Source: a virus (taxonomy: Duplodnaviria > Caudoviricetes). Taken from it: 64,000 bases of DNA. The stretch lies in IMG/VR virus record IMGVR_UViG_3300047159_000056, positions 128,001 to 192,000 of that record. The stretch is one strand, 5' to 3'. Position numbers and translations under genes: made by a program. Shown in pieces: positions 5,163-52,835 of the stretch; within the stretch, counting starts at the first letter, position 1; each line of letters begins with the position of its first letter. The notes beneath the pieces were generated by a model, which saw nothing but the letters and a program-made list of their open reading frames with translations, did not search any database and was not told the origin of the DNA.

Positions 5163-5477
5163 TTATAAAAGCCATCTCCTAGCCCAATCATAGTGGTGTC
5201 TATCAATTGTATAGGCTAGGTTTGGCTCTCCGAAGTCTGCTTCTAGAACAAAAGAAATTTTCTTATATGATTCTCTTATATTCCATGTCATAGCAAATCT
5301 TAAAAGAAATTCTATAACAAACCAAATATAAAAACCAATAAATAATAATTCTTTCTTCTGCTCAAGGAATATCAAATATCTATTGAGAAGCAAATCAGAA
5401 TGCTTCTTCTCATTGTAGATCATGCACCATGGCCAGAGACAAATAATGAATAGAACATTCTTACTAATCAGCTTCAT
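5163..5477 (-). CDS. hypothetical membrane-associated protein
   Basis: 104 aa with hydrophobic segments; Y..ISF..EA motif typical of small Bacteroidetes/phage proteins. Confidence 0.6.
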   Translation of the reverse strand: MKLISKNVLFIICLWPWCMIYNEKKHSDLLLNRYLIFLEQKKELLFIGFYIWFVIEFLLRFAMTWNIRESYKKISFVLEADFGEPNLAYTIDRHHYDWARRWLL

Positions 5478-5583
5478 AACTTTCAGACTGTTCTATTTCT
5501 GTAACTGAACCTGGTGACTTAATTATCTTCTTCCTATCAAAGGAGACATTGTGGTTCTTTTTATTTTTTCGTAATAATATCAT
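5464..5583 (-). CDS. 39-aa peptide with leader-like start (MILLRK)
   Basis: Read manually: MILLRKNKKNHNVSFDRKKIIKSPGSVTEIEQSESYEAD. Confidence 0.4.
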   Translation of the reverse strand: MILLRKNKKNHNVSFDRKKIIKSPGSVTEIEQSESYEAD

Positions 5584-5585
5584 AA

Positions 5586-6920
5586 TCAAATACCAAATAT
5601 TTTTTTAATGGATTCACGCACCATTATAGCCGATGATTCCCAATATACATTCTCTTTTAATTCTGGATAATTATATATTAGATATGGTTGATGATTCTTA
5701 TCAAGAGCCATATTTAGTTTATTAAAATGATTATATAAATTTTTTCTGCAACTCACAGGCGTAGCTAGATATGAATTGCATAAATCTTTGGAAATTTCTA
5801 TATTTTCATCAACATTAGATCTTGAATAAACCATATTTTTATTTACGTAAGCACTTATATTGTTATTCTTCCATATATTATTCTTGCCTCTTATTCTTCC
5901 AGAAATATAATATAAATCTTGAGAAATATTATAAAAGATATCCAAATTATCACAGAGAATACATAACTTAGTAGAATCATTAGTATAAAGATCAATTCCT
6001 GTAGATACTTCTTTAGTACATAGAGTTATCGTATTATCTATAATCCCATCAGTTTTTGTACATGCATTTCCTAGTTTACTAATTAATTTATCCGTATTAT
6101 AGTCAGTGCTGTCACAAATTATGCTAGTGTTAGATTTTGATAAGTTACTAGCTATCATAAGATTTAATAGTTCATCTATATTATCAAGATATACTATCAA
6201 ATGTGATCCTGGATATTTTCCATCTCTATATTCTTCAATTAGAGATACTATTTCTTTTTTAGGATCTTCACTCATTAATATTTTAGGATTTGGCAATGAA
6301 TCTTTTTCCTCCCAATCTAATTCATATAGTGGAAAATTAGATAACTCTGGTATATCTAATATATGATTCTTTATAATTTCAAAACTATCCTGAATTACAT
6401 AAACTATGCTATTTACTCCTAAAGTTGATTTTATAAAAGAATCTATTTCATTTCCTCTATAAAGATTTGGATTAATAAATACATCTTGAAAATCATCTAC
6501 TACTGTTTGAAAGATATCTAACAATCCCATGTTTTCTAATATTTTCCTGACAATATAGTAAGACTCGTAGGTAACTATTATTTTACATGGCTTTTTAAGT
6601 GAATAACAATCATCTATCCATTTTTCTAACTCAGCTTGTAACTCTTTATACTTTTGAAATTTATAATTTATGTTTTTACCGACATCAACACTTAATACCT
6701 CTCCTTGGTGTTGATCTGTTTTATTCTGAAGCAATATTCTTCTAGGACTACATAAGATAACATTTAGACCTTTACTTCTTATGCACCATTCTGTATAGCC
6801 ACATCCAGGAATTTGTTTATCCAAAATATGCGGATAGTCATATAAATATTTTTCTTGATAATCCTTCCAATCACTAATAAATCTAATTCCTCTAGGTACT
6901 ATTATTTTTGTTCTACTCAT
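5586..6920 (-). CDS. divergent SF2 helicase-like protein
   Basis: PGCGYT (Walker A-like), ILCSPR, IIVTYES, VVDDFQ (Walker B-like), TGIDL, ISGRIR. Confidence 0.6.
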   Translation of the reverse strand: MSRTKIIVPRGIRFISDWKDYQEKYLYDYPHILDKQIPGCGYTEWCIRSKGLNVILCSPRRILLQNKTDQHQGEVLSVDVGKNINYKFQKYKELQAELEKWIDDCYSLKKPCKIIVTYESYYIVRKILENMGLLDIFQTVVDDFQDVFINPNLYRGNEIDSFIKSTLGVNSIVYVIQDSFEIIKNHILDIPELSNFPLYELDWEEKDSLPNPKILMSEDPKKEIVSLIEEYRDGKYPGSHLIVYLDNIDELLNLMIASNLSKSNTSIICDSTDYNTDKLISKLGNACTKTDGIIDNTITLCTKEVSTGIDLYTNDSTKLCILCDNLDIFYNISQDLYYISGRIRGKNNIWKNNNISAYVNKNMVYSRSNVDENIEISKDLCNSYLATPVSCRKNLYNHFNKLNMALDKNHQPYLIYNYPELKENVYWESSAIMVRESIKKIFGI

Positions 6921-6953
6921 TTTAAATTATTTAAATTCTTCTATAAATAAGGA

Positions 6954-7208
6954 TCATTTATTCTCTTCATCAGCATTTCTGTAATATTCATCTATGTCAT
7001 CCTCATCGTCGTCTTCTTCAAACTCATCTGAATCATAATATTGCTGCTGAGTCTGTTGAGGAGGAATAACTGGCTTTCTTATCTCTTCCTCTTCTGGCTG
7101 CTCTGGTTCACCCTCTTTCTTCTTAAATATTAGAGGATGACCAGTTACACCAGTACCTTTTATTTTAATTTCAGGATAAGAAAATTGTTTTATCCTAGGT
7201 AATATCAT
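6954..7208 (-). CDS. leader-bearing putative internal head protein, acidic C-terminus
   Basis: MILPRIKQFS leader. Confidence 0.6.
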   Translation of the reverse strand: MILPRIKQFSYPEIKIKGTGVTGHPLIFKKKEGEPEQPEEEEIRKPVIPPQQTQQQYYDSDEFEEDDDEDDIDEYYRNADEENK

Positions 7209-7978
7209 AATTTCTGCTTAATTAATCTTATGTACTCTTTAACTACAGGATTGTTCATATATGGCTTATAAACTTTAATTAATGCTTCTTTCAAACCACT
7301 TATCTTAGTTCCACCATCAATATCATCTCCTATACTAAACACATCTTCATTGTTCTCACCATTTGCATAAGGAAACCAATTTATAGTATCATATTCACAT
7401 CCTAATATTATAATACTATCATTTTCATCGTCTGAATATTTTGTCCAATTATTTTTAAACTCATTCAAGCTTTTCCTAGTTATTACCGGAGTCATTAGTA
7501 TATAAAGATCTTCATCATTATAACCATTGTCTTTGTAATTCTTAACTAGAGTCGGTACCATTTTTATATTGATATCCATTAGACTTTGAACTTCAGGTGG
7601 AACAGAAAGAGCGTTAATATCTTTCTTATCCTGGTTAAATCTACTAAGTAAAGAAGATTCAGGATTTGTTTGGAATTCATATTTTTCCTTCCTTAACTTG
7701 TTATCTCTATCAATTGCCTTGTTAGATGTATTTGACCAAGTAGATCCTGCTCCAAGTGCTCCTCCAGCTAATGCTCCTATACCAGCACCTATAGCAGCTG
7801 AACCCTTTCTTATACCTTTGCCACCTGCAATTCCACCTATAACTCCACCAGTTAAACCACCACTAAGAGAACCAAGTAAACCATTTCTAACTGTTTGCCC
7901 AATTCTTTGTTTTGTAGTTAGGTGGGATTTGGGTATATATTCTGGAATAGCAAATAATTTTATCCTAGGTAATATCAT
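7205..7978 (-). CDS. leader-bearing glycine-zipper protein with SUKH-like C-terminal domain
   Basis: MILPRIKLFA; GxxxG-rich hydrophobic hairpin; paralogous with 7975, 9377 and 10042. Confidence 0.6.
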   Translation of the reverse strand: MILPRIKLFAIPEYIPKSHLTTKQRIGQTVRNGLLGSLSGGLTGGVIGGIAGGKGIRKGSAAIGAGIGALAGGALGAGSTWSNTSNKAIDRDNKLRKEKYEFQTNPESSLLSRFNQDKKDINALSVPPEVQSLMDINIKMVPTLVKNYKDNGYNDEDLYILMTPVITRKSLNEFKNNWTKYSDDENDSIIILGCEYDTINWFPYANGENNEDVFSIGDDIDGGTKISGLKEALIKVYKPYMNNPVVKEYIRLIKQKL

Positions 7979-8733
7979 AATTTAGCTCTTATTTGTTTTG
8001 AAAATTCTCGTATCATAGGATCGTTATTTCCAATATAGTAAGAAGTTAGCGCTCCCTTAAGTGACCTATAGTCTCCATCTATATCATCTAACATAAATCC
8101 AAATGGCATATCTGAATCAGGAAACCAAGATAAACAATCAGTATTAAACTTGTTCATCTTCAGAATATTAATACCAAAAATAGCGCCATCCTTAAATTTC
8201 TTCAGATCATTATTTATTTCATAAGACTTCTTTGGTATAGGAAGATTATCACCTAGGCAATCTACATCATGAGTCTGTTCATAATATTTCATCATAGTAG
8301 GAATAAAACTAATTTCAATATCCATTAGCTTAATCAAATCTCTACCAGGACCACCAAACTCAATCTTATATAGGTCTCTCTTTCTAATATTAAGTGCCTC
8401 TCTTACATATGGCTCTGGATCTCTAAGAAACTCTCTATATTTTTCTTTGGCTAAGTTTCTGGCTTTTACTGCATTATTACTATCACCAAAGTAAGTCATT
8501 AGAGCAGCAGGTATACCAAGAATAGCACTACCGAGAGCCGCACCTCCAAAGATACTAGACTTCTTTCCTTCTCCAGCACTCCAACCAACTGTAGCTCCCA
8601 TACCAGCACCAACTGCAGCACCTCCTAGACCAGCTAATGAAGCCCTCCTAAGACGATCTTTCTTACTAACAAATTCTTCATCAACTATATCCTCTGGTCT
8701 GACTATATGTGAAAATCGTTTTAAATATATCAT
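7975..8733 (-). CDS. leader-bearing glycine-zipper protein (paralog of 7205)
   Basis: MIYLKRFS; GxxxG hairpin; shared LMDI...P...K.Y and SLK.AL..Y motifs. Confidence 0.6.
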   Translation of the reverse strand: MIYLKRFSHIVRPEDIVDEEFVSKKDRLRRASLAGLGGAAVGAGMGATVGWSAGEGKKSSIFGGAALGSAILGIPAALMTYFGDSNNAVKARNLAKEKYREFLRDPEPYVREALNIRKRDLYKIEFGGPGRDLIKLMDIEISFIPTMMKYYEQTHDVDCLGDNLPIPKKSYEINNDLKKFKDGAIFGINILKMNKFNTDCLSWFPDSDMPFGFMLDDIDGDYRSLKGALTSYYIGNNDPMIREFSKQIRAKL

Positions 8734-8744
8734 AATTTATTTAT

Positions 8745-9380
8745 TTATTTTCCTGTTAATAGGTAAGAGAGATAATCTATGTATTCACTAAGACTCCACT
8801 TTTTATAACTCTTACTGCCAACTATATATTTTGGATCTATATCTTCACCTGATACAAATACTTTTTTATCATAGTCGGGATCAAAACTAAGATAAGCTCT
8901 TTTATAAATATCAGTTTTTCTAAATCTTTCTTTTAATGGTAGTTTCTTAATAGATGGACTCTGCTTTTCTAATTCTAGGTCTACCTTATCTTTAAATCTT
9001 GGTATTTGAGAATAGTAATTAGAAATCCAATAATCAGCAAATTGTTCTGGTGATTGACTAGTATATTTGGAAATAGGATCTCCAACATTCTTCCAAGATT
9101 CATAGACTTTCATAGGTACACTAAGCTTAATAAGAGATTTTCCTTTCCCTGGTTTCATTGGTAAGAAAGATCTTGACTTACTTAAGTATATTCTATCTTT
9201 CCTTTCCTCATCCTTTAGACCAGATCTAGAGGAAGCAGTACCAGGTTTTAAAGTCATCTTCTTTAATAATCCCTTAGAATATATAGAGTCTACATTCTCA
9301 TCTTTTGTCATATGATATAGATTCTTTCTACCACTAATATGCTCCCAAATAGAAAAATCTTTATTTCTTAGCAATATCAT
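8745..9380 (-). CDS. leader-bearing ADP-ribosyltransferase-fold protein (Tpt1/KptA-like)
   Basis: MILLRNKDFS; LYHMT...VDSIYSKGL, IYLS, LIKLSVP, EDIDPKYI motifs. Confidence 0.55.
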   Translation of the reverse strand: MILLRNKDFSIWEHISGRKNLYHMTKDENVDSIYSKGLLKKMTLKPGTASSRSGLKDEERKDRIYLSKSRSFLPMKPGKGKSLIKLSVPMKVYESWKNVGDPISKYTSQSPEQFADYWISNYYSQIPRFKDKVDLELEKQSPSIKKLPLKERFRKTDIYKRAYLSFDPDYDKKVFVSGEDIDPKYIVGSKSYKKWSLSEYIDYLSYLLTGK

Positions 9381-10045
9381 AATACTCTATTTACATGTTT
9401 TATATATGCCTTAGATAGTCTACTTTCACTATTATATGGATTTTTATAATAATCATTCAGAGCTTCTTTCAAAGACTTATATGATTTATCAGTTCCATAA
9501 TTATAAGTTTTACTCTTAGTATTATAGTATAGTGCGTCATCAGGATTATCCATCTGAAGAGCCTCTATATCATTGCTCCCAGTATATGTTGGTTCAAATG
9601 TTCCCATAACTGGTATATTAACATAGGCTCGTGGATCTTTAGTTATTCTATATTCTTTAACTATTTCTGGAGTAAATTTCTTTTGATTTTTCATTAACTT
9701 CAGATAATCACTGGATAAATTATATCTTTGGGGAACTATGAATTTTTTGTAGTCGTAGTCATATTTATTGTTGAGACTATTTTCCGCGTCACTCCAATCA
9801 ACATCGGGAGAAACATCGTCATTTCTATGTCTATAAGCATCAATTCCTCCATGTATAGCACCAATAGTTCCACTAATAGCCGATCCAATTAAGGCACCTT
9901 TTCCACCGTCATTTACTGCCCAGCTTCCTATGCCTCCTCCTATTAGTGCACCTCCTATAACTCCGGGAATTGCTTGTATATATGCACCCTTTGCTACTTT
10001 TTTAAATGTACTATCAGAGAAATTTTTTATTCTTGGTAATATCAT
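9377..10045 (-). CDS. leader-bearing glycine-zipper protein with SUKH-like domain
   Basis: MILPRIKNFS; close paralog of 10042 (DW.DAENSL..KYDYDYKKFI ... YIKHVNRVL). Confidence 0.6.
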   Translation of the reverse strand: MILPRIKNFSDSTFKKVAKGAYIQAIPGVIGGALIGGGIGSWAVNDGGKGALIGSAISGTIGAIHGGIDAYRHRNDDVSPDVDWSDAENSLNNKYDYDYKKFIVPQRYNLSSDYLKLMKNQKKFTPEIVKEYRITKDPRAYVNIPVMGTFEPTYTGSNDIEALQMDNPDDALYYNTKSKTYNYGTDKSYKSLKEALNDYYKNPYNSESRLSKAYIKHVNRVL

Positions 10046-10707
10046 AATACTCTATTTACATGTTTTATATATTCTCTGGATAATCTATCTTTATTTTCTT
10101 TGTTTTTATAGTAATCATTTAAAATGTCTTTTAATGACTTAAATGATTTGTCAGAACCATAATTATAAGTTCTTGTATCCATATTATAAAAGATAGCGTT
10201 ATCTGAGTTTGCCATTTTTAAAAGGAATATATCTTTACTTCCGTTATAGATAGGAGCCAAACTTCCTATTACTGGTATATTAAGATTAGAACTAGGATTT
10301 TTAGTTATCACATATTCTTTAATTATTTCAGGAATAAATTTCTTTTGATTTCCCATAAGCTTAATAAAATCTCTTGGAAGGATATTCTGTTTAGGCATTA
10401 TGAATTTTTTGTAGTCATAATCATACTTACCAGTTAGGCTATTTTCTGCATCATCCCAGTCAATCTTATCGTATCTATGTTTATAAGCATAAATTCCTCC
10501 CAAAATAGACCCAGCTAATCCAGCCCCTGTTCCTACTAATCCTGAGCCTATTAATCTATGGGCCCTTTTTCTTTTGTCCTCTCTATTGGCTGCTTTTTTT
10601 AACTTATTAGCCCACTCCTCATCTTTCTCATCCCAATCTTCTGGTAGAGAATTAGTAAATGTTTTAATTCTCTTATCATTATCAGAGAATAATCTTCTAA
10701 GTATCAT
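10042..10707 (-). CDS. leader-bearing glycine-zipper protein with SUKH-like domain
   Basis: MILRRLFS; paralog of 9377. Confidence 0.6.
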   Translation of the reverse strand: MILRRLFSDNDKRIKTFTNSLPEDWDEKDEEWANKLKKAANREDKRKRAHRLIGSGLVGTGAGLAGSILGGIYAYKHRYDKIDWDDAENSLTGKYDYDYKKFIMPKQNILPRDFIKLMGNQKKFIPEIIKEYVITKNPSSNLNIPVIGSLAPIYNGSKDIFLLKMANSDNAIFYNMDTRTYNYGSDKSFKSLKDILNDYYKNKENKDRLSREYIKHVNRVL

Positions 10708-10876
10708 CGCTCCCTGTTAAAAAGTTAAACCCTTTTCTAATAGCTCTCTTGGTTCTGGCACCAGTTCTTACTTCGTTCTCATAGGATTTATAAACTTTTC
10801 CCATAATTCCTCCGCTTCCAGTACCAGCTCCAAGGGTATTATCTTCTGTAAAATACTTTCGTCTCTTAATTAGCAT
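10697..10876 (-). CDS. small leader-bearing protein
   Basis: Likely start at ATG 10876 (MLIKRRKYFT), not the upstream start in the ORF track. Confidence 0.55.
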   Translation of the reverse strand: MLIKRRKYFTEDNTLGAGTGSGGIMGKVYKSYENEVRTGARTKRAIRKGFNFLTGSDDT

Positions 10877-11288
10877 AGTTATTATCACACAGGCTAAACA
10901 GATATTTATATTTATTGATTTCTTGAATAAATGTTTCTGTTTCACTTGATAGACCTTTATATACTGTATCACTAGGGATAGACTCATAAAAATCTGTAGC
11001 TGCGTCTAGAACCTCATCAATGAAAGATACTGCGTCAGATGCTGCTGCTGGAACTGCTTCTACATCATTTGGTCCCATTTTTCCTAAGATTCCCATATAA
11101 CCTTCTGCTACTGTATCCTGATAATCTGATACAATTCCAAGAAAATCATCTAAGTAAGTATGAATATTTTTCTTAGGTGCTGCCCAATGAAGGTTTTTAC
11201 ATTTTGTTTTAAAGCCTTCAAGTTTACCAATGTAGTCTAGGAAAACTCTATTGTCTTCACTATACTGAGTTTGTTTGAATTTAATCAT
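10866..11288 (-). CDS. leader-bearing ferritin/Dps-like four-helix protein
   Basis: MIKFKQTQYS; KNLHW...H..LDD...D..AE..MG and KY.YL pattern of Dps-like phage proteins. Confidence 0.6.
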   Translation of the reverse strand: MIKFKQTQYSEDNRVFLDYIGKLEGFKTKCKNLHWAAPKKNIHTYLDDFLGIVSDYQDTVAEGYMGILGKMGPNDVEAVPAAASDAVSFIDEVLDAATDFYESIPSDTVYKGLSSETETFIQEINKYKYLFSLCDNNYAN

Positions 11289-11290
11289 TT

Positions 11291-11824
11291 CTATTTTATA
11301 TTTTTACATTCTTTTATTAGGGAGATTAAGTAGTCTGTATACTCAATCACCGGGAGATCCACTTTTGATTTTGGATCCCTATTTACTTTTGGTCTATCAT
11401 AATCTTGCTCCCAGTCAGCATTAAGTCGAAACTTTTTATAATTTCTAGAATAAAAACTAATTAGATTTTCTTTAGTTATATCTTCTAGTCTCCCATCAAC
11501 TAACATCATAGGTTTTTCATCTTTTTCGTTCCAAACTATAAGATTATCTGTATCATCGTCCATCACTTCCATGTCTAGCAAGATAAGACAACCAGAATTA
11601 ACTCTCACATCAAAAGAACAAGATTTCTGTAGAACAAATACTGGATCTGTTTCATATACTATGTCAGGTATTTTCTGATATAGACTTTCCAGTTTTTGAT
11701 TATTCATTACCTCTACCAAGTCACTTACTATAGGATTATTTCCAATTAAGCTTTGAGAATTAATAGAACCTTCAACTAGTTTCTTAGAATATGTATCTGA
11801 GAAGTTAATTCTTTTTAGTATCAT
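11291..11824 (-). CDS. leader-bearing hypothetical protein
   Basis: MILKRINFS. Confidence 0.6.
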   Translation of the reverse strand: MILKRINFSDTYSKKLVEGSINSQSLIGNNPIVSDLVEVMNNQKLESLYQKIPDIVYETDPVFVLQKSCSFDVRVNSGCLILLDMEVMDDDTDNLIVWNEKDEKPMMLVDGRLEDITKENLISFYSRNYKKFRLNADWEQDYDRPKVNRDPKSKVDLPVIEYTDYLISLIKECKNIK

Positions 11825-12419
11825 TTTCTTTCTTTTCTTTTTTTACAGTATGTTTTCCTATAATTTTTCCAATCTGTCTTGCACCATAACCTAGAGCTAT
11901 TGGAACTGCTACTCTAGCCACAGCATTTTTTACAAGTTCAGATTTTCCAAGTCTCTTTGCTTTTTCCAGTTATAATAGTCTTTCCTATATTTTTCCATTT
12001 CTTTTTCATGCTTTTTATACTTATGTAATTGTTTTGCATAGGCATAAGCAGCTAAGCCAATTGGAATAGAAGCTCCTAAGATAGCTCCCTTTCTTCCCGC
12101 TTTTTTAGTTCTTTCACTATTATTTACTTTAATATCTAGAACAGAATCTATTAGTGGTTTCTTTTTATTAATATAGTCCTTTACATTTTCTCCAGCCCTA
12201 TTTACCATGTCATAGAATTCTTTTTTCTGACGTTTCTTAGAAATTGATCTTGCGAGTTGACTAACATTATAAGCACTATAAGGTGTAGTAGGACCAGCTA
12301 ATAAAACTAATCCTGTAGCTGCGGCTGATGGATTTAAAACTCGCTTAGGCATTCTTGGTTTACCAGATTTTTTAGTTTCATCATTAGACTTAGAAGAAAA
12401 TCTTTTTTAGTATTATCAT
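11805..12419 (-). pseudogene. leader-bearing membrane-anchor protein broken by two compensating 1-nt indels (error or decay)
   Basis: Removing one A in the A6 run at ~12403-12408 gives MIILKRFSSKSNDETKKSGKPRMPKR, joining ORF 11930..12352; a second shift near 11945 continues ELVKNAVARVAVPIALGYGA... to TAA at 11805. Confidence 0.55.
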
Positions 12420-40899: not shown

Positions 40900-41004
40900 C
40901 TAATTGTTATCAGATTCTCTAAGAGGATTAAATAGATTTTCTTTATCTAAGTCTTCTATATTATCCTCTACATTCTTTGTAAATGTTTTTTCTTTTAGTT
41001 TCAT
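40900..41004 (-). CDS. 34-aa peptide with leader-like start
   Basis: MKLKEKTFTKNVEDNIEDLDKENLFNPLRESDNN, read manually. Confidence 0.45.
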   Translation of the reverse strand: MKLKEKTFTKNVEDNIEDLDKENLFNPLRESDNN

Positions 41005-41005
41005 A

Positions 41006-41272
41006 TTACACTAAGAACATTATACCAGCACCTACAATACCACCAATTACCCAAGAAGCAAAATTCCATACATTAAATTTTCTTGACAAAACTAATGTAC
41101 AAACTCCTTCTACAAAAGCACCACTAATAATATCAATAATTATAGCAAGTACCCAAGCATTCTCAGCTGTACCAAGTGATCTCTCCTGCCAAATAGCTAA
41201 AACAGCCAGGATTAAACCTAGGACTGCAAAAAAGATCTTACTGTTAAACAATGTTGTTAAAATGGATTTCAT
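41006..41272 (-). CDS. small three-TM membrane protein (holin candidate)
   Basis: 88 aa with three hydrophobic segments; no leader. Confidence 0.4.
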   Translation of the reverse strand: MKSILTTLFNSKIFFAVLGLILAVLAIWQERSLGTAENAWVLAIIIDIISGAFVEGVCTLVLSRKFNVWNFASWVIGGIVGAGIMFLV

Positions 41273-41290
41273 ATTTTATCCTCCTAATAT

Positions 41291-41755
41291 TTATTTGAAA
41301 GGCATTCCTACTGGAGGAACTGTCTTTGCTTTTGATTTATAAAGACCAGTATTATCATTCATCTTCCTTGTTTCATCGGAAGTCTTCTTTATCTTAATAT
41401 TATTACTCTTCTCCTTCTCAGACTTCTCATCCTCTTGCTTCTGTCTTTGACTAAGCTGCCTCATATCAGACATCTTTTGTTGCTGTTCTAACTTATTTCT
41501 AGCTATCTGATTCTGAACCAACTGCTTTTGTAATTTCATTTGCTGAAGAATTAGTTGTCTAGAAGTAACGTCATTTGTTCTTTGTGCAGCTGACTGTTGA
41601 GCTGATACTTCTGGGGAAACCTGTTGCTGAGCTTGAGCCTGAGATTGTTGTGGAGAAATCATTACCTGTGAACCATCTGTAGGAACATCAGTCTGATCCC
41701 CTTGTACACCCTCCGGATTCTCAAGAGTAAACGACTTTCTTCTTAGTAGTATCAT
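41291..41755 (-). CDS. leader-bearing Q-rich coiled-coil protein
   Basis: MILLRRKSFT. Confidence 0.6.
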   Translation of the reverse strand: MILLRRKSFTLENPEGVQGDQTDVPTDGSQVMISPQQSQAQAQQQVSPEVSAQQSAAQRTNDVTSRQLILQQMKLQKQLVQNQIARNKLEQQQKMSDMRQLSQRQKQEDEKSEKEKSNNIKIKKTSDETRKMNDNTGLYKSKAKTVPPVGMPFK

Positions 41756-43864: not shown

Positions 43865-44434
43865 TTATTTCTTTTTATTCCACTTCTTAGCAAATTCAGA
43901 CTTTGTCATATTGCCATTAGCTACTTCTGTTAAATCAACATCTCTCTCGAATGCCTTTTCATTATTCTTCCAGAATTTCTTTCCTGTTGGATTTTTGGAT
44001 TCTTTTATAGAGTGATTTCTAATAGCTTTACTAACTCTAGTACTTCCATATCCTAATCCAGCACCTACTCCAGCACCAGCAAGACCACCAATAGCGGCTC
44101 CTTTAGCTCCTCCTTTAACATAGCCTAAACCTGCTCCAGTAATAGAACCAAGAGCACCATTGACAATAGCCTCTCTTTTCCCGGCTTTTTTCCATGCCTC
44201 TGGATCATTTTTACCAAGTCCTACAACCAAATTTCTTTCTCCTTTTGTCATAAGATGCTTTCTATTCCATGCGGTGACTTTGTCTAGAAGCTTCATCTTA
44301 GGCTCATCTTCTGGATCTGAATACATTAGCTCATCTAAGTATTGATCTTCATCTACAAATTCTGTGGTGCTAAATAGTCTTTCCTCTCCACTCTCATCTT
44401 GTAGTGTAGAGAATACTTTTCTTCTTATATACAT
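43865..44434 (-). CDS. MYIRRK-leader glycine-zipper protein
   Basis: Leader plus GAKGAAIGGLAGAGVGAGLG. Confidence 0.65.
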   Translation of the reverse strand: MYIRRKVFSTLQDESGEERLFSTTEFVDEDQYLDELMYSDPEDEPKMKLLDKVTAWNRKHLMTKGERNLVVGLGKNDPEAWKKAGKREAIVNGALGSITGAGLGYVKGGAKGAAIGGLAGAGVGAGLGYGSTRVSKAIRNHSIKESKNPTGKKFWKNNEKAFERDVDLTEVANGNMTKSEFAKKWNKKK

Positions 44435-44463
44435 ATTCTTATTCTTTTTATAATTCTTTTAGT

Positions 44464-44512
44464 TCTCTCAGTCTCATCGAAGAGTAGATTCATTTTACAA
44501 ATCGCTGAGAGA
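44464..44512 (-). ncRNA. three-way-junction RNA element, copy C
   Basis: UCUCUCAG-C-GAUUUG..UGAAUC-UA-CUC UUCGAU GAG-A-CUGAGAGA. Confidence 0.7.
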
Positions 44513-44523
44513 TAATAGTTAGA

Positions 44524-45069
44524 TTAGAAATTATAATTTCTCTTCATATATTCTTTCTTAGACATCTTGCCATCTGCTACCTTCATTAGGTCTACGTCAT
44601 CCTGCAATTCCTGTCTATAATTATTTGTATATTTGTGTCTTAGGGCTTCCTTCTGATTTTTTGCCAACTTTCTTGAAGCAAGAGCACCAATACCTGCACC
44701 AACTCCAGTACCAGCAAGAGCACCAATAGCAGCTCCCTTAGCACCAGCCATAGATCCCATACCTGCTCCATAGAGCCCGCCAATTACACCACCTACTTGG
44801 CCACCACGTTTGGTTGTATGTTTAATATACGGCTCCCAATCATTTTTCTCAATAGCATTCTCTGCTACTTCTCTTCCTTTTTTGGTTTTAAACCACTTAA
44901 GATCTCTAAGTCTAGCTTTATCGGATTTTGTAAGTTCCTGATCTTCATCATCAGAGAAACAAATTTCGTCTAGATATTCGTCTTCATTCATAAATTCAGT
45001 TGTACTGAACAATCTTTCCTCACCATTTTCATCTTCAAATGTAGAGAATACTTTCCTTCTTATATACAT
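44524..45069 (-). CDS. MYIRRK-leader glycine-zipper protein
   Basis: Leader plus GAKGAAIGALAGTGVGAGIG. Confidence 0.65.
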   Translation of the reverse strand: MYIRRKVFSTFEDENGEERLFSTTEFMNEDEYLDEICFSDDEDQELTKSDKARLRDLKWFKTKKGREVAENAIEKNDWEPYIKHTTKRGGQVGGVIGGLYGAGMGSMAGAKGAAIGALAGTGVGAGIGALASRKLAKNQKEALRHKYTNNYRQELQDDVDLMKVADGKMSKKEYMKRNYNF

Positions 45070-45074
45070 AGTTT

Positions 45075-45464
45075 TTATTTCTTTTTATTTTTGTAGTGAT
45101 TATATGCCATTATCCCAGCTCCTGCAAGAACCGTTCCAGCTGTAGCAAGAGAAATGGCTTTTTTATTTCTCTTAAAGAAAGAGTCCTTTGGCTTTACTAT
45201 ATAATAATTTTGTGGTAAGTGCTTAGCAATTTCCTGTTCACTTTCTGGAATAATAGTTTCCATTCCAGCTAGCTTCTTTGCCTTCTCTAATGCTTTTTCT
45301 CTATTATTATCTAGATATTCTTTCAAAGGTTTAAATGGACCTTGCTTTCTTAGTTTTCTATATTTATCAGCCAGTTCTTTTCTGGTTTTCTTTAAATACT
45401 TAGATTCAGCACTATTAAGAGAAATATAATCCCTCTTAGCAAAATTTTTATTTAGTAGTATCAT
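45075..45464 (-). CDS. leader-bearing basic protein with C-terminal anchor
   Basis: MILLNKNFA; paralog of 46006; ends AYNHYKNKKK. Confidence 0.6.
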   Translation of the reverse strand: MILLNKNFAKRDYISLNSAESKYLKKTRKELADKYRKLRKQGPFKPLKEYLDNNREKALEKAKKLAGMETIIPESEQEIAKHLPQNYYIVKPKDSFFKRNKKAISLATAGTVLAGAGIMAYNHYKNKKK

Positions 45465-45994
45465 TTCTTATTAAGTTTCTTTAACCTATCCTTAGTATTT
45501 ATCTCAGCACCAAGAACAGCAGATTTTCTCTTTTTTAATATCTTAGGAATATGTGCTCCTGCTGCTACTAATGCTACTCCAGCTCCTATAAGACCAGCCT
45601 TTTTACTTATCTTTGGAGCTACCCCATTAGCAAATGCAGTAGCTTTATTATATGGTAATTTGCCGTTCTCTTGTAAATAATTTATAGCATTCTTTCCAAA
45701 CTTAGAAACTAAGTAAGCTGCTCCTCCGTATTTTACTGCATCTTCTACTGGATCCTCCATATTTTCAAGAAGAACCTTATTTCCGGCAGCTCTTTTTGCA
45801 GCCTTTACTATATGCTCATCATCTTTACCTTCTGCAAAAGCTTCATCTGCTGCTTTTTGTCCAGCCCTAAATGACTCTTCAGCTTCAGTTTTCTTATTTC
45901 TATCTTGAGTCCAACCTACACCAATTCTAGATCCTGGTAAAACAGTTCTAGTTCTATTGGATGATTTACTGAAGTTTGTTCTCCTTAGTATCAT
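45461..45994 (-). CDS. leader-bearing basic protein
   Basis: MILRRTNFS. Confidence 0.6.
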   Translation of the reverse strand: MILRRTNFSKSSNRTRTVLPGSRIGVGWTQDRNKKTEAEESFRAGQKAADEAFAEGKDDEHIVKAAKRAAGNKVLLENMEDPVEDAVKYGGAAYLVSKFGKNAINYLQENGKLPYNKATAFANGVAPKISKKAGLIGAGVALVAAGAHIPKILKKRKSAVLGAEINTKDRLKKLNKK

Positions 45995-46005
45995 AATTTA
46001 TAAAC

Positions 46006-46413
46006 TTATTTAGACTGGTTCTGTTTTTTCTTCTTGTAGTGTGTATATGCTAAGGTTGCAGCGCCCGCTAAAGCACCACTCATTGCAGCACTACCCATAG
46101 CCATCTTATGATTCTTAATAAAATTTCCGACCCTCTTTGTAAGCTTCTCTTTAACAGGAGTTATTACTTTAGTTTCACCATTCAATATCTTATATTTAGA
46201 ATCTAAGAGTTCTTTCCTAGCATCAGAAATAGCAGATTGTCTTAAGGCATCCTTAACTGGTTTACCAAATATTATTCCCTTAAGTCCACTAGCTCTTGTA
46301 TTTCTAATTGAGTCAGCTACGGCCTTTCTTTTGCCCTTGAGAATTTCAGCTTCTCTTTTTGTTAAGCCTTCATAATCGGCTCTAGCAAAATTTTTATTTA
46401 GGAGTATTATCAT
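46006..46413 (-). CDS. leader-bearing basic protein with C-terminal anchor
   Basis: MIILLNKNFA; ends AYTHYKKKK. Confidence 0.6.
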   Translation of the reverse strand: MIILLNKNFARADYEGLTKREAEILKGKRKAVADSIRNTRASGLKGIIFGKPVKDALRQSAISDARKELLDSKYKILNGETKVITPVKEKLTKRVGNFIKNHKMAMGSAAMSGALAGAATLAYTHYKKKKQNQSK

Positions 46414-46414
46414 A

Positions 46415-48283
46415 TTAAAATATATTTTCTAGCATATCTTGTACTACCTTTGCTGACTCTTCTCTAGAATCTTCAGCCATTTTAGAGATAATGCTAAGTT
46501 GTTTATCTACCCCATTACTATATCCAGATTCCTCTCCAGCATCTATAGACATTTTTAAGCTATAACATGCACTAGCCAAGGAATCCCAAACATCTTTACT
46601 TCCTTTTCCATTATTAACATCAAAGACATTAGAATTTTGAGTTGCTTTCTTAGGGTGATCTATTTTATATCCCTTTGAAGTAGGAACATATCTAAGATCA
46701 TAAGCCTCCCTTAATAATCTTCTATTTTCTGGTATCTCAATCATTTCTAAGAGTATGAGATTTTTTAAATATAAGGCTGGATCACAAGGAACATTATCAG
46801 TAGAAATTCTTCCGTTAGTAGCTATGTTTTCCCTTTCACAATCTTGAAGAATTTGTTTAGAGAAAGCTATATCGGCACTAACTACAATATTATATGTTTT
46901 CTTAAGAGACATAATTAAGTCAAATACATGAAATAAACTAGTCTCTTGTCCTTCCTTTCGAGCTATAGCCAAACTAAATATACACTTAACTTTAGGCCAC
47001 TTAACTCCATTTATTATCTCCCAACCATCAAACTGAACTGCACTCATTCCAGTATAATCATCTACTGTAGCTAAGTCAAGTCCTAACCAAATAGTAGAAG
47101 TTGGTCTAACTAATGATAAGGCAGGAGAAATTTTATCTATTATTCTATCAGTCTTATCAAAAAAGTCAACCTGGATAATCTCTGGTATATTATTCTTTTT
47201 CTTATAACAATTTACCATATGCTCCATGTTTCCACCAAAGAATGAATCAGATGCACTAGTAGAAACACCACACTTATCCTGTAATGTTTTTTCTAGATTC
47301 AATTTGCATTCAACCATTAATTGCCAGGGTAATCTAAGAACTCTATCTGGATCTTGGTCTTCTGCTAATTTATAATCTTCAGCTAATATTTGTGGAGGAT
47401 ATTTACCATCTCCTATATATACTGGGAAAGTTCTACCACGACTCTCTTTATAGGATTGTGGTTTAACTTCATAATGAGTTGGCTTACAGTACCAAGTTAA
47501 ATCAGAAGGAGAATTATCTAAGAACCATTCAGTACAGGAATTATTACCTTTTGCTGAGGAGTCTATAATTAAGTTTCCCACCTTAGTCATTGCATCTCTA
47601 TCAAATCTAGATGTAAAACGACCATATGCTGTTTCAACTATTCCTTGCGCTTTCTCTTGATTAGGATAGAAGTTAATCTCACTTATTATATATACAAGAA
47701 CATCACTACCAAGACCAGCCTGACTTAGAGGGCCTGATGTTAGTACTTGAAATTTAAAACTTTTCTTAGTATTTTTGAAGAATGGTGACTTTTCCAAAAC
47801 TTCTTGAGTAAACCAATACTTAAACTCTTTTCTTGCAACCTCTTCATCCCTGTGATAGATAACTGCACTAAAAGGCTTTGGAGTTAGTTTAAGAGTTCTA
47901 CTAGGATTATTCATACAAAGAAGTCTAGCATAAGTCATAGCTAAACATAATCTAGATACAGTAGACTTACCAGTACCAATTGCTCCAGATAGAACTAAGA
48001 ATGGTTTTGCAGTTAAGACAGAACTGGGATAAATTATTGGTAAACTCTTCTTCCAATAGTCAAAGAGATTATTTCCTTTATCAAAAAATTCTGTTCCTCC
48101 TAAGAAATACTCATCAGAATATAATTGCTCTATACTAGGTGGTATTTTATTGTAACCATTTATCTTACAAAATATTAATAGTTTTTCTTCATCCGTTAAC
48201 TTTGCATATTGCTCCTCTATTGAAACTCCACTGAAATCAATTAGGGATGTTGGGTCTGTATGATCTATAAAACTATTTATCAT
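46415..48283 (-). CDS. terminase large subunit
   Basis: Walker A SGAIGTGKS, YIISE (Walker B), DSS motif III, RNase H-like GLDLATVDD, IDHP...KDVWDS. Confidence 0.85.
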   Translation of the reverse strand: MINSFIDHTDPTSLIDFSGVSIEEQYAKLTDEEKLLIFCKINGYNKIPPSIEQLYSDEYFLGGTEFFDKGNNLFDYWKKSLPIIYPSSVLTAKPFLVLSGAIGTGKSTVSRLCLAMTYARLLCMNNPSRTLKLTPKPFSAVIYHRDEEVARKEFKYWFTQEVLEKSPFFKNTKKSFKFQVLTSGPLSQAGLGSDVLVYIISEINFYPNQEKAQGIVETAYGRFTSRFDRDAMTKVGNLIIDSSAKGNNSCTEWFLDNSPSDLTWYCKPTHYEVKPQSYKESRGRTFPVYIGDGKYPPQILAEDYKLAEDQDPDRVLRLPWQLMVECKLNLEKTLQDKCGVSTSASDSFFGGNMEHMVNCYKKKNNIPEIIQVDFFDKTDRIIDKISPALSLVRPTSTIWLGLDLATVDDYTGMSAVQFDGWEIINGVKWPKVKCIFSLAIARKEGQETSLFHVFDLIMSLKKTYNIVVSADIAFSKQILQDCERENIATNGRISTDNVPCDPALYLKNLILLEMIEIPENRRLLREAYDLRYVPTSKGYKIDHPKKATQNSNVFDVNNGKGSKDVWDSLASACYSLKMSIDAGEESGYSNGVDKQLSIISKMAEDSREESAKVVQDMLENIF

Positions 48284-48363: not shown

Positions 48364-48849
48364 TTAAATTCCGATTATTTCTCTAAGAGGACGTCCTTTT
48401 CCTCCATTAATAGATTGCATTCTTGAATTAAATTTTGCAAGGTCTACAGCATTCTTAACGGCTTTCTTAGTAACTGGCTGACCAGATTCTCTAAGGCCTA
48501 CTCTAGCAAATCTTCCTAAAGCTTTTTGTACACTTGGATTAGTGGTGTTATATATTCCTTTTCCGGCTCTTCCAGATCTTCCAGCTATACCAATGACTTT
48601 ATTTATTACTTCCTCCTTATTTGCATTCTCTATTCCTCTTCTGCTGATCTTTTTACCAATATCTCTTATTCTAGAAAGTGCTTTGGCCTGACTTCTTATA
48701 GATGCATACTCTTTCTGTTCAGGTTCTTCGTCAGAATACATCATTTCATCCAGATATTGATCTTCGTCTACAAATTCTGTAGAACTAAATAGTCTTTCCT
48801 CACCATTCTCATCTTCAAATGTCGAGTATAGTTTACGTCTTATATACAT
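48364..48849 (-). CDS. MYIRRK-leader basic protein
   Basis: Likely start ATG 48849 (MYIRRKLYS...EERLFS...QKEYA), followed by an R/K-rich body. Confidence 0.65.
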   Translation of the reverse strand: MYIRRKLYSTFEDENGEERLFSSTEFVDEDQYLDEMMYSDEEPEQKEYASIRSQAKALSRIRDIGKKISRRGIENANKEEVINKVIGIAGRSGRAGKGIYNTTNPSVQKALGRFARVGLRESGQPVTKKAVKNAVDLAKFNSRMQSINGGKGRPLREIIGI

Positions 48850-48850
48850 G

Positions 48851-49575
48851 TTATTTCTTTTTATTATGTTTATATTGGTAATATTTATAACCACCATATC
48901 CAATACCACTAGCTAATGCCAATCCTCCAGCAACTTTGCCGACTGTCTTAAGATTTTTGATTCTTCTTAATTTGGCATTTTTTAGAATCTCAGTCTTCTT
49001 TGCTGCGGCTTTAGCTTCTGCTCTAGCAATATTTTCAGACTTAGCTCTAGCCTCTGCTCTAGCTTTTTCTCTCAACTCTTCTTTTATTTTTGCCTTAGCA
49101 TTTTCAGCATTAATTCGCTTCTTGATATCATCCTCTACTTGTTTTTCTATGGCGGATTTATTACGTTTTAATTTATTATCAAAAAGTTGACTTTGATGTT
49201 CTGGACTAAGTCTATGGATTCTAGAGAACTTATCATTAAATAAACTCTTAGCTCCCCTTCTTTGAGCGGCTCTTCCTTCTTTAAGTAGTGATTCCTGCTT
49301 ATCGGCCAGTTTAGATATATCTTTCATACCTTCTACTTTGGGACTCCAAGATCCTCCTTTAACTAAAGGTGTGGTAGAAGCAACCTTATATTTATCATAT
49401 ACCTTCTTATAGCTTTTATCTATAGGGTTAGTAAGAAAATTATCAGTTGAAGCACTTTCTAATCCTATCTTCATATCAGACAATGCTCTTCTAGCCTTTT
49501 GTGCTTTGGAATTAAAGGTTCTTTCCTCTATCTCCCCCCCCCCCCTGAGAGGATATTGTTTCTTAATATTATCAT
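48851..49575 (-). CDS. leader-bearing basic anchor protein interrupted by an out-of-frame G12 tract
   Basis: ATG 49575 overlaps the upstream TGA (ATGA); MIILRNNILS-G12; G10 or G13 would fuse it to ORF 48851..49483 via EIEERTFNSKAQKARRA. Confidence 0.7.
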
Positions 49576-49865
49576 TTTATTTTATTAATTAGAGCTCTTC
49601 CTTTTTCAAGAGCTAATTGTTGTCTAACTGCAGTGTCTAATTCTAGTGTCTGAGGTGAAAACTTAGGATTATCAAAAGGAACAATTAGGTTTTTATATTT
49701 TTCCAGAGTCCTAAGAGAACCGCCCTTAGTTACTGGTTTCTGTATAGCGCTTTTGTATAATGCTTTCTCATACATAGGACCTTCAATCCCCTTTTTCATA
49801 ATCCACTTATTCTTTAGAATCTTATTAAGCCTATTAGAATAAGTTTTTTGTCTTAAGACTATCAT
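49572..49865 (-). CDS. small leader-bearing basic protein
   Basis: MIVLRQKTYS. Confidence 0.6.
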   Translation of the reverse strand: MIVLRQKTYSNRLNKILKNKWIMKKGIEGPMYEKALYKSAIQKPVTKGGSLRTLEKYKNLIVPFDNPKFSPQTLELDTAVRQQLALEKGRALINKIK

Positions 49866-50569
49866 GATATTCCGTTATCTTTTTTTAATAAGTCCATAAA
49901 TTTCTCTATGGTTTTCTTTGTTTCTGGATCATCAAATTCTTCATTACCAGTTTTTTCTGCTAATTTCTTCAATTCTAATTCAGAACCGTCAATCATAATG
50001 TCATCTTTCATCTCTTCTATCTGTGTAATAAAGTTCATGATCTCTCGTACAGCTAAGAAGGTATCTTGAATTGTCATCTGAGACTTATCAAAAAGGTTCT
50101 TAGGATCCAGTACATAATCAATAGCCAAGCTTAATTTACTTAGCATATGAACAATTAAGATAGGACGAATTGACTTAAATATTTCACTGAGATATAATTC
50201 TAATGTTCTTCTGCTCTTTGGGTCACTTACATTTACTAGAGTTTGAGATAGAGAATCAAAATTTATCTGAAGGTCTGTTCCATACTCTTTATTATATTTT
50301 GTAAATACCTGACTAAGAGCTAATTGCATTTCTTGTGCTTTTTGTTCTTTTTCGTTTTTAGACAGGGCAGAGGCATCTACTATTATATTCTTAGCAGTTC
50401 CAGATAGAGGTAATTTAGGAGCCTTTGATATAATTGATTTCATATCTGACTCTACATCTTGATCAGGCTCTATTAATTCATAGTTGTCTGACCTATGATC
50501 TTCTTTACTATTACTTCCTAAGATCTGGCGCTTAAATTCTTCATTATCAAAAGGATTTATTGCCTCCAT
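49862..50569 (-). CDS. helical hypothetical protein (terminase small subunit candidate)
   Basis: 235 aa, helical, no leader, upstream of the large terminase; position only. Confidence 0.3.
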   Translation of the reverse strand: MEAINPFDNEEFKRQILGSNSKEDHRSDNYELIEPDQDVESDMKSIISKAPKLPLSGTAKNIIVDASALSKNEKEQKAQEMQLALSQVFTKYNKEYGTDLQINFDSLSQTLVNVSDPKSRRTLELYLSEIFKSIRPILIVHMLSKLSLAIDYVLDPKNLFDKSQMTIQDTFLAVREIMNFITQIEEMKDDIMIDGSELELKKLAEKTGNEEFDDPETKKTIEKFMDLLKKDNGIS

Positions 50570-50581
50570 AATTATAACTCC

Positions 50582-50731
50582 TTAATTTGTAGTTGATTTA
50601 TCAGTTGCAGCTGCCTTTGATGCTCTTTCCATTTCCTCACCAAGAGATGCAGCTTGTTCTCCGTAGTCTTCATTTTGCATAGCCTCTACGTCAGAATCTG
50701 AAACTGAATATTTCTTTCTTAATAATATCAT
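50582..50731 (-). CDS. 49-aa leader-bearing acidic peptide
   Basis: MILLRKKYSVSDSDVEAMQNEDYGEQ..., read manually; ATGA overlap with the upstream gene. Confidence 0.6.
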   Translation of the reverse strand: MILLRKKYSVSDSDVEAMQNEDYGEQAASLGEEMERASKAAATDKSTTN

Positions 50732-51177
50732 TGCTGTGGTTGTTGTTGAGATTGATCTAGATTACTTTTCTTCTTTAGAAACATAGATCCAAGTACACCA
50801 GCTGCAGCTAATCCAAGTCCAGCTTTTCCCATTCTTGCTATATTTTTTCCAGCACCTGTAGCACCAAATTTACTCATGTCTCTAACATAACCAGATGCTT
50901 GTTTATAATTCATCCTCATATTGGGGCTAGTAAGAACAGTTTTTAATCCTCCTTCTACTCCATTATTAATCAAAGCTTTATTTGCAGCAATACCATGTTG
51001 AATTGCAGAGGCAGTGGCTAGACCTGCTCCAGTTACAGCAGCTCCTTTGGCTATAGTGGAACCTATATTGCTTCCTTGAGAATTATCTTGTGAATCACCA
51101 TTAATGGATCCAGTATTTTTTCCACTTCCAGTCATAAAATCCATCATCCCAAAAGATTTATTTCTTAGTATTATCAT
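50728..51177 (-). CDS. leader-bearing G/A-rich two-helix protein
   Basis: Likely start ATG 51177 (MIILRNKSFG). Confidence 0.6.
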   Translation of the reverse strand: MIILRNKSFGMMDFMTGSGKNTGSINGDSQDNSQGSNIGSTIAKGAAVTGAGLATASAIQHGIAANKALINNGVEGGLKTVLTSPNMRMNYKQASGYVRDMSKFGATGAGKNIARMGKAGLGLAAAGVLGSMFLKKKSNLDQSQQQPQQ

Positions 51178-51817
51178 TTCTACTATTCTTATCTTTATAG
51201 TGTTTATATGCAACTAATCCAAGACCAGCTAGAGTTAAGGCAGATGCTCCACCAACTAATAATTTTCCCTTCTTTGATTCTAGGAAAGTATCACCTAGAT
51301 TTGGATTAGACATAACATCTTTTAACATGGCAGATTTTTCTCTACCTATTTCTATATATCTATTTGGAAACTCTTTTCTAACCTTTCTTATTCCAGAGGC
51401 TAGAGCTTTCCTATAAGACTTCAATGCCTTAGTCTGATTTTTATTAAGACCTTTAAAATCAGATCTAGAGAAACTTTTTATCATATCCATCCTATTATTT
51501 CCAGTATCATTAGATTTAACCCAACCTAATTTAGTATATAGGTCTACAGCTTTCTTATTACTTTTTGTTACTGATAATTTTTTAGCAGGGCTACGTTCTA
51601 AAAGACTTGTTGCTATTCCTTGATTTCTATATTTTGGATCTACAAATAGTGCAGTTATCCAATCATTTTCCCAGGATTTAAAACCAACCAGGGAAGACTT
51701 ATCAACTAACATTATTCCTTTAGTTTTACCAGGAATATATCTAGCATGGCAAAGAGAATTTCCAGGCCTTTTATATTGTAGTATATTTTCCTTGTTATAT
51801 TCTATTTCTTTTACCAT
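51158..51817 (-). CDS. GNAT acetyltransferase fused to a leader-family anchor module
   Basis: LFVDPKYRNQGIATSLL motif A, N.KAV.LY.KLGW motif B; internal IKSFS followed by a 45075/46006-like module. Confidence 0.75.
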   Translation of the reverse strand: MVKEIEYNKENILQYKRPGNSLCHARYIPGKTKGIMLVDKSSLVGFKSWENDWITALFVDPKYRNQGIATSLLERSPAKKLSVTKSNKKAVDLYTKLGWVKSNDTGNNRMDMIKSFSRSDFKGLNKNQTKALKSYRKALASGIRKVRKEFPNRYIEIGREKSAMLKDVMSNPNLGDTFLESKKGKLLVGGASALTLAGLGLVAYKHYKDKNSRNDNTKK

Positions 51818-51956
51818 AATTTATTTCAGTTTATTTTTACATAATCTGGGGAAGTGTGTTTAACTCAGGTCTCCTCTTTCTACCTGACACCTCCCACTAG
51901 CATCAATTAGTTTTACCGTTAGTTATGTTAGCTACTGTACTTCACTAAACTTACGA

Positions 51957-52103
51957 CTATAACCACATTGGACCTTTGTATCCCTTGTCGTAAAGATTTT
52001 CATAACTCTTAGCTGCTAAAAGTATATAAGCTTTAAACGGCAAAATCAAATAATGACCTGTCGTTTTAGCAGCCGTCTTAATAAAATTAAAAACTGCTTT
52101 CAT
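51957..52103 (-). CDS. 48-aa small protein in a highly structured transcript
   Basis: MKAVFNFIKTAAKTTGHYLILPFKAYILLAAKSYENLYDKGYKGPMWL, read manually. Confidence 0.5.
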   Translation of the reverse strand: MKAVFNFIKTAAKTTGHYLILPFKAYILLAAKSYENLYDKGYKGPMWL

Positions 52104-52149
52104 AATAGAACTAAGATGTGGAGTCGAACCACAACCTAGTTAAATTTGT

Positions 52150-52193
52150 TCTCTCAGTCTAATTGAAGAGATAGGTTCTTCACCTCTGAGAGA
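52150..52193 (-). ncRNA. three-way-junction RNA element, divergent copy E
   Basis: UCUCUCAG-AGGU..ACCU-AU-CUC UUCAAU UAG-A-CUGAGAGA. Confidence 0.55.
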
Positions 52194-52198
52194 TATAT

Positions 52199-52835
52199 TT
52201 ATTTATCCTTATAATGATTATATGCAAGTAATCCAGCACCAGTTACAGCAGCGGCTCCTGTTACAGCAGTTGCTACTTTATGATTGCCAATAAATTTACC
52301 CATCTTTCCTATAAAAGATGTATTATTAGGTTTAAATGTTTGATTTGTTACCCCACCGTGAACAAAATTTGCAGCTTTAACCTTTGGGCTAATAATTTCT
52401 GCCTGTTTAGTTACCTTGGCTGCAGCTTCTCTTGCAGCTTTTGATTGAGCTAATTGCTGCTGATGCTCTTGTGAAAGATTACCTATTCTTTGATTTATAT
52501 TTTGTCTAGTTGTTTGATTAGCAACAGATTTTGGAATTCCGGCCCTATTAGCAGATCTTCCATTAACTAATAATTCTTCCTGTATAGCTCCTTTATTTTG
52601 TGTAGCTTTATCTTGAAAAATTTTAAATTTTGCATTCTCTGTTCCACGCTTAGCTACAATTGGACTATTTGCTGCACCATTAACATCATATTTAGCATTA
52701 TATTTAGGATTGGCAGCAATATTTCCCTGATTCATATCCCAGGAAGCTCTTCTAGCTTTCTGAGCTTGGGAGTTAAATGTCTTTTCACTTAGTACCCCCC
52801 CCCCCGAGGAAGGTATTGTCTCTCAGTATTATCAT
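52199..52835 (-). CDS. leader-bearing anchor protein interrupted by an out-of-frame G11 tract
   Basis: MIILRDNTFL-G11; G10 or G13 would fuse it to ORF 52199..52735 via VLSEKTFNSQAQKARRA. Confidence 0.7.

Follow-up and report, generated by a model that had tools for sequence, protein, structure and literature searches.

In bacteriophage T4, the prohead protease gp21 cuts core proteins repeatedly while virion proteins shed an N-terminal propeptide, and the internal proteins IPI, IPII, IPIII and Alt carry a capsid-targeting sequence (CTS) in which targeting and cutting residues are separable (PMC9026906). Protease-matured internal head proteins are also described in the jumbo phages phiKZ and SPN3US (PMC10052503). 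Here, a 64,000-nt stretch of virus DNA (the window), which corresponds to positions 128001-192000 of a 207-kb contig (IMG/VR record IMGVR_UViG_3300047159_000056; 32% GC; CheckV completeness 56%), was found to contain 41 genes with a common N-terminal leader. This element is probably a T4-like capsid-targeting and maturation leader, with an aromatic residue before the cut (P1), carried by about 40 proteins.

Leader genes of the head region

The leader corresponds to M-I-[IK]-[LF]-[RK]-x-K-x-[FY]-[SGTA] and usually counts nine residues through the aromatic one, as seen in 169 distinct leaders from 22 related loci. P1 is F in 80% of cases and Y in 20%, and P3 is K or R in 99%. A regular expression of the leader matches 33 of the 58 genes located at 6.9-53 kb versus 3 of 200 elsewhere in the 207-kb contig (Fisher P 1.7e-22, a descriptive value only since the expression was written after the motif had been seen). 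Hand curation gave 41 leader genes, all on the minus strand between 5.5 and 52.8 kb; these include two short open reading frames (ORFs), two genes without cut site (5464-5583 and 31034-31417) and three genes with the leader out of frame in the assembly (ATG at 12419, 49575 and 52835). In the two complete relatives (353 and 401 kb), which have about 21 leader genes each, the strict pattern is confined to the morphogenesis module with one exception, located near the RNA polymerase genes of relative G002. A homolog of the multi-subunit RNA polymerase beta chain occurs in both (G001:C1:173149-176300; G002:C1:123573-127900, split in G002) and is not found in the 207-kb contig.

Codons vary within the leader, with TCT, TCA or AGT for the Ser at P1' and TTT, TTC, TAT or TAC at P1, and orthologs exchange leader subtypes while K-x-[FY]-small is retained. 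A preliminary description of this DNA, made from its letters alone, had counted roughly 40 ORFs with a common leader conserved at the protein level and missing from the terminase, sheath, tube and neck candidates. The data agree on each of these points, and the N-termini that it quoted are all present on the minus strand.

A 340-kb contig nearly identical to the 207-kb one exists, and 79 IMG/VR loci, on contigs of up to 401 kb, are related to the capsid gene. Only 26 of 258 genes have Shine-Dalgarno-like sequences, and A is preferred at -3, which may point to a Bacteroidota host.

Prohead protease and putative cleavage site

The head genes considered here all lie on the minus strand. The prohead protease (38213..39454) is predicted to adopt the T4 gp21/assemblin fold over residues 1-180, with an AF2 model (pLDDT 82.5) whose top match is 5jbl by both Foldseek and VIA (Z 11.4, rmsd 2.7, 130 residues aligned) and whose next matches after gp21 are herpesvirus assemblins. 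H49, S134 and D160 are conserved, which supplies the His-Ser-Asp triad of a T4-type system. A tblastn search with the protease domain detected no cultured relative. Pfam and PHROGs left capsid, scaffold, protease, portal and terminase all unidentified, and it was by structure and profile comparison that they were recognised. In a large group of related loci (L001-L043), the protease gene is broken into pieces separated by a gap, which suggests an intron or an inserted element.

The back half of the leader recurs inside the head proteins. In the protease, four [KR]-x-F-S occur in residues 181-262 (0.07 expected). The major capsid protein (33316..34770) has an invariant K-x-F-S at F38 and F59, within a predicted propeptide whose boundary is drawn from alignment only, and none past residue 62 (2 in residues 1-62 versus 0.05 expected); it was identified by hhalign (97.9% to annotated capsids of the YerA41/IME392/TM30 group), its AF2 model being poor (pLDDT 49), with viral Foldseek matches from this low-confidence model that are capsids. 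The neighbouring 848-aa product with a GTG start (34794..37340) has a net charge of about -189, 17 [FY]-S versus 2.5 expected and 10 copies of the motif versus 0.73 expected; from its position, charge and site density, it would be the scaffold. Four [KR]-x-F-S (0.25 expected), two of them near the N-terminus, are found in a conserved zinc-ribbon head-core protein (37351..38226), and two sites in residues 1-60 of the portal (42076..43770; 0.05 expected; BLAST E 2e-9 to the annotated TM30 portal), with none later. The mature capsid, protease domain, tube and neck have no [KR]-x-F-[SG], and it occurs at background level in the sheath and in the large terminase subunit (46415..48283), a leaderless negative control recognised by tblastn to annotated terminases.

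This distribution is that of gp21 substrates in T4 and points to the back half of the leader as a protease site; the end of the leader is very probably the site of the phage's own prohead protease. Complex prediction for protease and leader peptide lends weak support (score 0.32 versus 0.00 for the best control, to be read against a mark that 58 of the 80 solved pairs and 2 of the 110 mismatched ones attained, of which 7 of the 80 solved and both mismatches were at 0.60 or under), the runs having at least 82% of contacts in common and a partner pLDDT of at least 49.

Other cut sites and leader types were considered. HK97-type proteases cut after Lys. Such a cut was ranked lower here because the residue next to Lys is unconstrained, the residue past F/Y is small and F aligns with the E of relatives. 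By inspection, a type IV prepilin leader was rejected for want of a hydrophobic run past Phe, and a double-glycine bacteriocin leader for want of Gly-Gly.

The capsid has homologs in YerA41, IME392, RP13, TM30 and phiLo, and its second K-x-F-S aligns with E-[SA] of IME392, RP13, YerA41 and phiLo. Among Glu-type relatives, the first motif past the protease domain is x-E-S; distant members of the aromatic group have x-[FY]-S there. The residue at catalytic Ser+2 is R or K in all five Glu-type proteases versus Val in the present protease and in 81 of about 100 clade relatives, and the tails of these Val-type proteases contain 179 [KR]-x-[FY]-[SAG] versus 30.8 expected, with no excess of [ILV]-x-E-[SA] (38 versus 36.9 expected). 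If the end of the leader is its site, the protease would thus probably cut after Phe/Tyr rather than Glu, and we infer that Ser+2 has a role in the S1 pocket. T4 gp21 presumably has Arg at this position. If true, one residue (Arg/Lys versus Val at Ser+2) would set Glu versus aromatic specificity in gp21-type proteases, a rule that would bear on the sensing of prohead proteases by CBASS (PMC12991175).

In YerA41, five small proteins share a leader ending in K-F-E-[AS]; all are late and particle-associated in LC-MS/MS data, and the corresponding paper lists them as hypothetical particle proteins, with no N-terminal leaders retrieved by a term search of its main text (PMC7354516). More generally, several small head-region proteins with a common leader and a Glu-type end were observed in YerA41/GN1 (L085 1599-5837; L083) and in RP13 (L081 11490-23631).

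Cargo bodies and poly-G tracts

The leader is carried by small, basic bodies, with a median length of 158 aa and a median pI of 9.3 (versus 5.9). A Gly/Ala-rich hydrophobic segment is present in 24 of the 41 leader genes versus 2 of 195 others, both of which are cargo-like and in the same module; judged from sequence, the payload looks membrane-directed rather than mainly enzymatic. The bodies had been described as unrelated, which does not hold: besides the common hydrophobic segment, 17 of 42 bodies tested by BLAST join five groups of paralogs. Nine leader genes are common to both complete relatives and may encode core head components; about 30 lack a detectable homolog in at least one of the two, and the variable ones differ between strains that are >99% identical. 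Near-identical strains (L104:5614-7560; L101; L094; L100) insert or replace leader genes, including chimeras that combine one leader with a different body.

The region begins with a 39-aa ORF that has the front half of the leader and no clear cut site (5464..5583). Nine adjacent leader genes follow (6954..11824, namely 6954-7208, 7205-7978, 7975-8733, 8745-9380, 9377-10045, 10042-10707, 10697-10876, 10866-11288 and 11291-11824), among which four paralogs combine a Gly-rich helix with a possible SUKH-like domain (TM 0.46, a lead only). In the same block, the 8745 body has an ADP-ribosyltransferase-like lead only (feature score 0.93; 38% of the members of the matched cluster have PARP) and the 10866 body is a Dps/ferritin-like DUF5856 protein. 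The leader gene at 11930..12419 is out of frame by one extra A (A6 versus A5) and intact in four near-identical contigs, and probably reflects an assembly error or a private mutation.

Further on, four leader genes occur at 20486..23421 (20486-20869, 20869-22164, 22174-22800 and 22807-23421), the first two being kept in both complete relatives, and eight conserved ones at 26821..31417 (starting at 26821, 27783, 28182, 28613, 29869, 30168, 30403 and 31034). One of these, at 28613..29848, is a probable polyprotein by its sequence, with internal K-x-[FY]-small near residues 85, 161 and 240 that recur in orthologs; together they have 36 evenly spaced internal sites versus 11.5 expected, and in some relatives adjacent units are fused through such sites. 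Two genes of the M-A-T-Y subtype with a Gly-rich helix (32551..33178) come directly after the capsid gene, five leader genes occupy the portal-protease interval (39572..41755: 39572-40057, 40063-40566, 40639-40896, 40900-41004 and 41291-41755) and five others the terminase-portal interval (43865..46413, starting at 43865, 44524, 45075, 45461 and 46006).

Genes of the M-Y-I-R subtype have a second site at about residue 21. A 144-nt repeat present in five copies spans their starts, which may represent recombination cassettes or structured RNA, and similar intergenic sequences lie between M-Y-I-R cargo genes at 43770-43865 and 44434-44524 (minus strand); a search of Rfam over 5-54 kb, these intergenic sequences included, gave no match. 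Finally, six leader genes are located in a strain-variable region (48364..52835: 48364-48849, 48851-49575, 49572-49865, 50582-50731, 50728-51177 and 52199-52835), where a leaderless GNAT is joined via an internal site to a cargo-type body (51158-51817). A protein search of viral contigs with the 48851 body returned no match.

Two paralogous leader genes of this region carry, past leader codon 10, the only G/C runs of at least 7 in the contig. The first tract (49534..49545, minus strand) is G12 and out of frame here, and is G7, G10 or G8+A elsewhere, all in frame; the second (52795..52805, minus strand) is G11 and out of frame here, and is G10 in frame in 6 contigs and G9 out of frame in 2 contigs. 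Independent assemblies, read as consensus sequences, thus offer both in-frame and out-of-frame states, as would the homopolymer of a phase-variable contingency locus. The length variation is genuine; a functional phase variation is possible, if somewhat doubtful. The G12 and G11 of the present assembly may be errors because it also has one private A-run insertion. In a distant relative (L065:419-1240), a C10 run directly past the leader, which does not share its frame with the Gly-rich cargo body that follows, is, by sequence, a second candidate contingency locus. Viral contigs contained no match to the DNA pattern of leader plus poly-G. Intergenic G9-G12 runs were also observed upstream of genes in L044, L047, L054, L061, L062, L067 and L068, often 20-30 nt past a C-rich stretch.

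Other genes of the window were noted. A leaderless 1557-aa protein with tandem repeats of 16-17 residues, conserved in relatives, lies between head and tail genes (15360-20033). The sheath-like gene (24271-26788) appears as two ORFs of 451 and 399 aa that overlap and differ in frame, where relatives have ORFs of 715-850 aa, and a frameshift or assembly error is possible. The cargo region is flanked or interrupted by a ClpP-like protease (53562-54266), an IMPDH/GMP-reductase-like gene (1881-2975) and a helicase-like insertion (5586-6920).

Proposed capsid targeting, rival explanations and known systems

Residues P8-P4, the front half of the leader, run from hydrophobic to basic, with a net charge of +1.6 versus -1.9 at the acidic scaffold sites, and this pattern is confined to leaders. 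Gene 31034 keeps the front half and lacks the cut site, as do all orthologs seen. Whether the front half is sufficient as an address is evenly balanced. In the mechanism that we propose, it would attach the protein to the acidic core of the prohead, plausibly to the scaffold. The gp21-fold protease would then cut between K-x-[FY] and S/G/T/A, and would also destroy the scaffold, trim the capsid and portal propeptides, shed its own tail and split polyprotein cargo. The freed bodies would remain in the head, about nine conserved ones as core components, while the variable ones, mostly small and basic with a Gly-rich helix, would exit alongside the DNA and have their action at the host envelope. 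This payload would be altered by the gain or loss of genes, by the shuffling of modules and possibly by slippage at poly-G. It is likely that most leader proteins enter the head; ejection of cargo into the host has slightly less than an even chance. The whole picture, in which one 9-residue address loads about 40 proteins, mostly membrane-inserting and, once ejected, building or remodelling a structure in the host envelope, with poly-G switching cargo on and off and a protease re-tuned to Phe/Tyr, is unlikely to hold in every part.

The T4-like reading, already advanced in the preliminary description, stands on the gp21-fold protease of the module, the motif where such a protease cuts, its co-change with internal sites in distant relatives and the YerA41 analogues in the virion. 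That description overstated its unrelated modular effectors and overlooked both the saturation of scaffold, protease tail and capsid propeptide with the motif and the Phe/Tyr-type site, unlike the Glu of T4. Several points weigh against a T4-like leader. Some leader genes have no canonical site. The switch from Glu to aromatic is a single evolutionary event, so that the covariation can be counted only once, and for YerA41, RP13 and IME392 cleavage after Glu is itself presumed by analogy with T4. Leaderless YerA41 neighbours (g002 and the terminase) are also particle-associated, which makes for poor discrimination (PMC7354516). In the complete relatives, the homologs of RNA polymerase beta are leaderless, and the hydrophobicity of the Gly-rich helices is only moderate (0.7-1.8 as the best 19-residue mean). 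Finally, the clade comprises uncultured members only, known from sequence.

Leader proteins could instead belong to the prohead core or be structural accessories, as are T4 gp67, gp68 and gp24, which enter the head, are cut and serve assembly or stay as fixed parts with no delivery. The fixed order of about nine conserved genes beside the capsid gene, the internal sites of several leader proteins and the scarcity of enzyme folds agree with this, which probably applies to the conserved subset. For the whole set it is improbable: the turnover of the 30 or so variable genes fits host conflict, as for the T4 ip genes (PMC9026906), and Dps-like, GNAT-fused and ADP-ribosyltransferase-like bodies would make poor scaffold parts. 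It is more improbable still that the leader is just an extended protease site, an inhibitory propeptide removed from late membrane proteins (e.g. for lysis or superinfection exclusion) with no packaging. The Gly-rich helices of 24 bodies, the helix and basic tail, resembling a tail anchor, at the end of seven cargo-type proteins, and the leader-like P6-P5 of some protease-tail sites are in its favour, but T4-type proteases work inside the prohead (PMC9026906), particles of YerA41 contain analogous proteins and P8-P4 is clearly unlike the scaffold sites.

There is little to recommend a tag read by another enzyme, either a host Prp-type cysteine protease, whose motif (L-Q-F-F then A-[SH]) is superficially alike (PMC9405229), or a modifier such as a radical-SAM maturase, of which the complete relatives encode domains. 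The K/R at P3 is not L, no Prp was found in the phage genomes searched (the contig and two complete relatives), the phage's own intact protease bears the motif in its tail, and the radical-SAM matches lie outside the head module and leave the E-to-F covariation unexplained. If the shared start were just a remnant of duplicated genes, or a feature acting on DNA or translation (late promoter, initiation context), the five paralog groups, the 144-nt cassette common to M-Y-I-R genes and A/T-rich starts would be expected; this is largely excluded by synonymous and TCN/AGT codon variation, by the motif inside proteins, by the swapping of subtypes with the site kept and by an upstream context that matches other genes.

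A T4-like leader, if right, would provide a sequence rule identifying internal head proteins, as yet unannotated, throughout a large clade of uncultured phages (79 or more IMG/VR loci and genomes as long as 400 kb), and would extend T4-type capsid targeting to ten times its scale in T4, with a payload that is mainly Gly-rich and helical, not enzymes, and possibly phase-varied. It also brings to light an apparently unremarked leader in the cultured phage YerA41. A literature search, in an incomplete library, retrieved no paper on the motif of this clade or on a Phe-specific prohead protease.

Among known systems, Prp acting on L27 and on the phage 80alpha capsid and scaffold also removes a short N-terminal extension past Phe and before a small residue, but it is a host cysteine protease with L-Q before F and only two phage substrates (PMC9405229, PMC5744158). 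The leaders do not contain its L-Q-[FL]-F then A motif. Poly-G tracts of Campylobacter phages reportedly affect mainly receptor-binding proteins, whereas the tract here separates the putative packaging leader from the cargo. Length-variable G runs in reading frames are nonetheless common to both (hypermutable tracts of Sorensen et al. 2021, cited in PMC10877375). The ejection proteins crAss001 gp45, T7 gp14 and P22 gp7 resemble the cargo, by description, in being stored in the capsid with a hydrophobic helix expected to insert in the host envelope, but they are few, large and podovirus-type and have no common leader (PMC10172136). The internal head proteins of phiKZ and SPN3US, cut by gp175/gp245, likewise are many, belong to a jumbo phage, form paralog families and lose propeptides to a protease; there, however, most propeptides count 111-254 residues, cleavage is after Glu, only nine substrates were found and no 9-residue leader is shared (PMC10052503).

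Closer are YerA41/GN1, RP13, IME392, Rhizobium TM30 (Kleczkowskaviridae) and Thermus phiLo, with homologous capsid, portal and terminase; YerA41 and RP13 also have small proteins whose common leader ends in their own putative site, with Lys at P3 in YerA41 as well. YerA41-type relatives differ by Glu at P1, by R/K at Ser+2 and by the number of leader proteins, of which only some five were seen close to the head genes. The T4 CTS is matched in a leader of about 10 residues ending in a head protease site, in a gp21-fold protease with the same site in capsid propeptide and scaffold, in basic, strain-variable bodies and in separable targeting and cutting residues (PMC9026906). Differences are the site itself (K-x-[FY] then small, versus [IL]-x-E in T4), the number of genes (41 versus 3-4), a basic leader, genes interleaved with head genes, a Gly-rich hydrophobic helix in most bodies, polyprotein forms and poly-G tracts. 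As neither the T4 cleavage motif nor similarity to the T4 CTS was found, the leader would work like a CTS but is not the T4 CTS.

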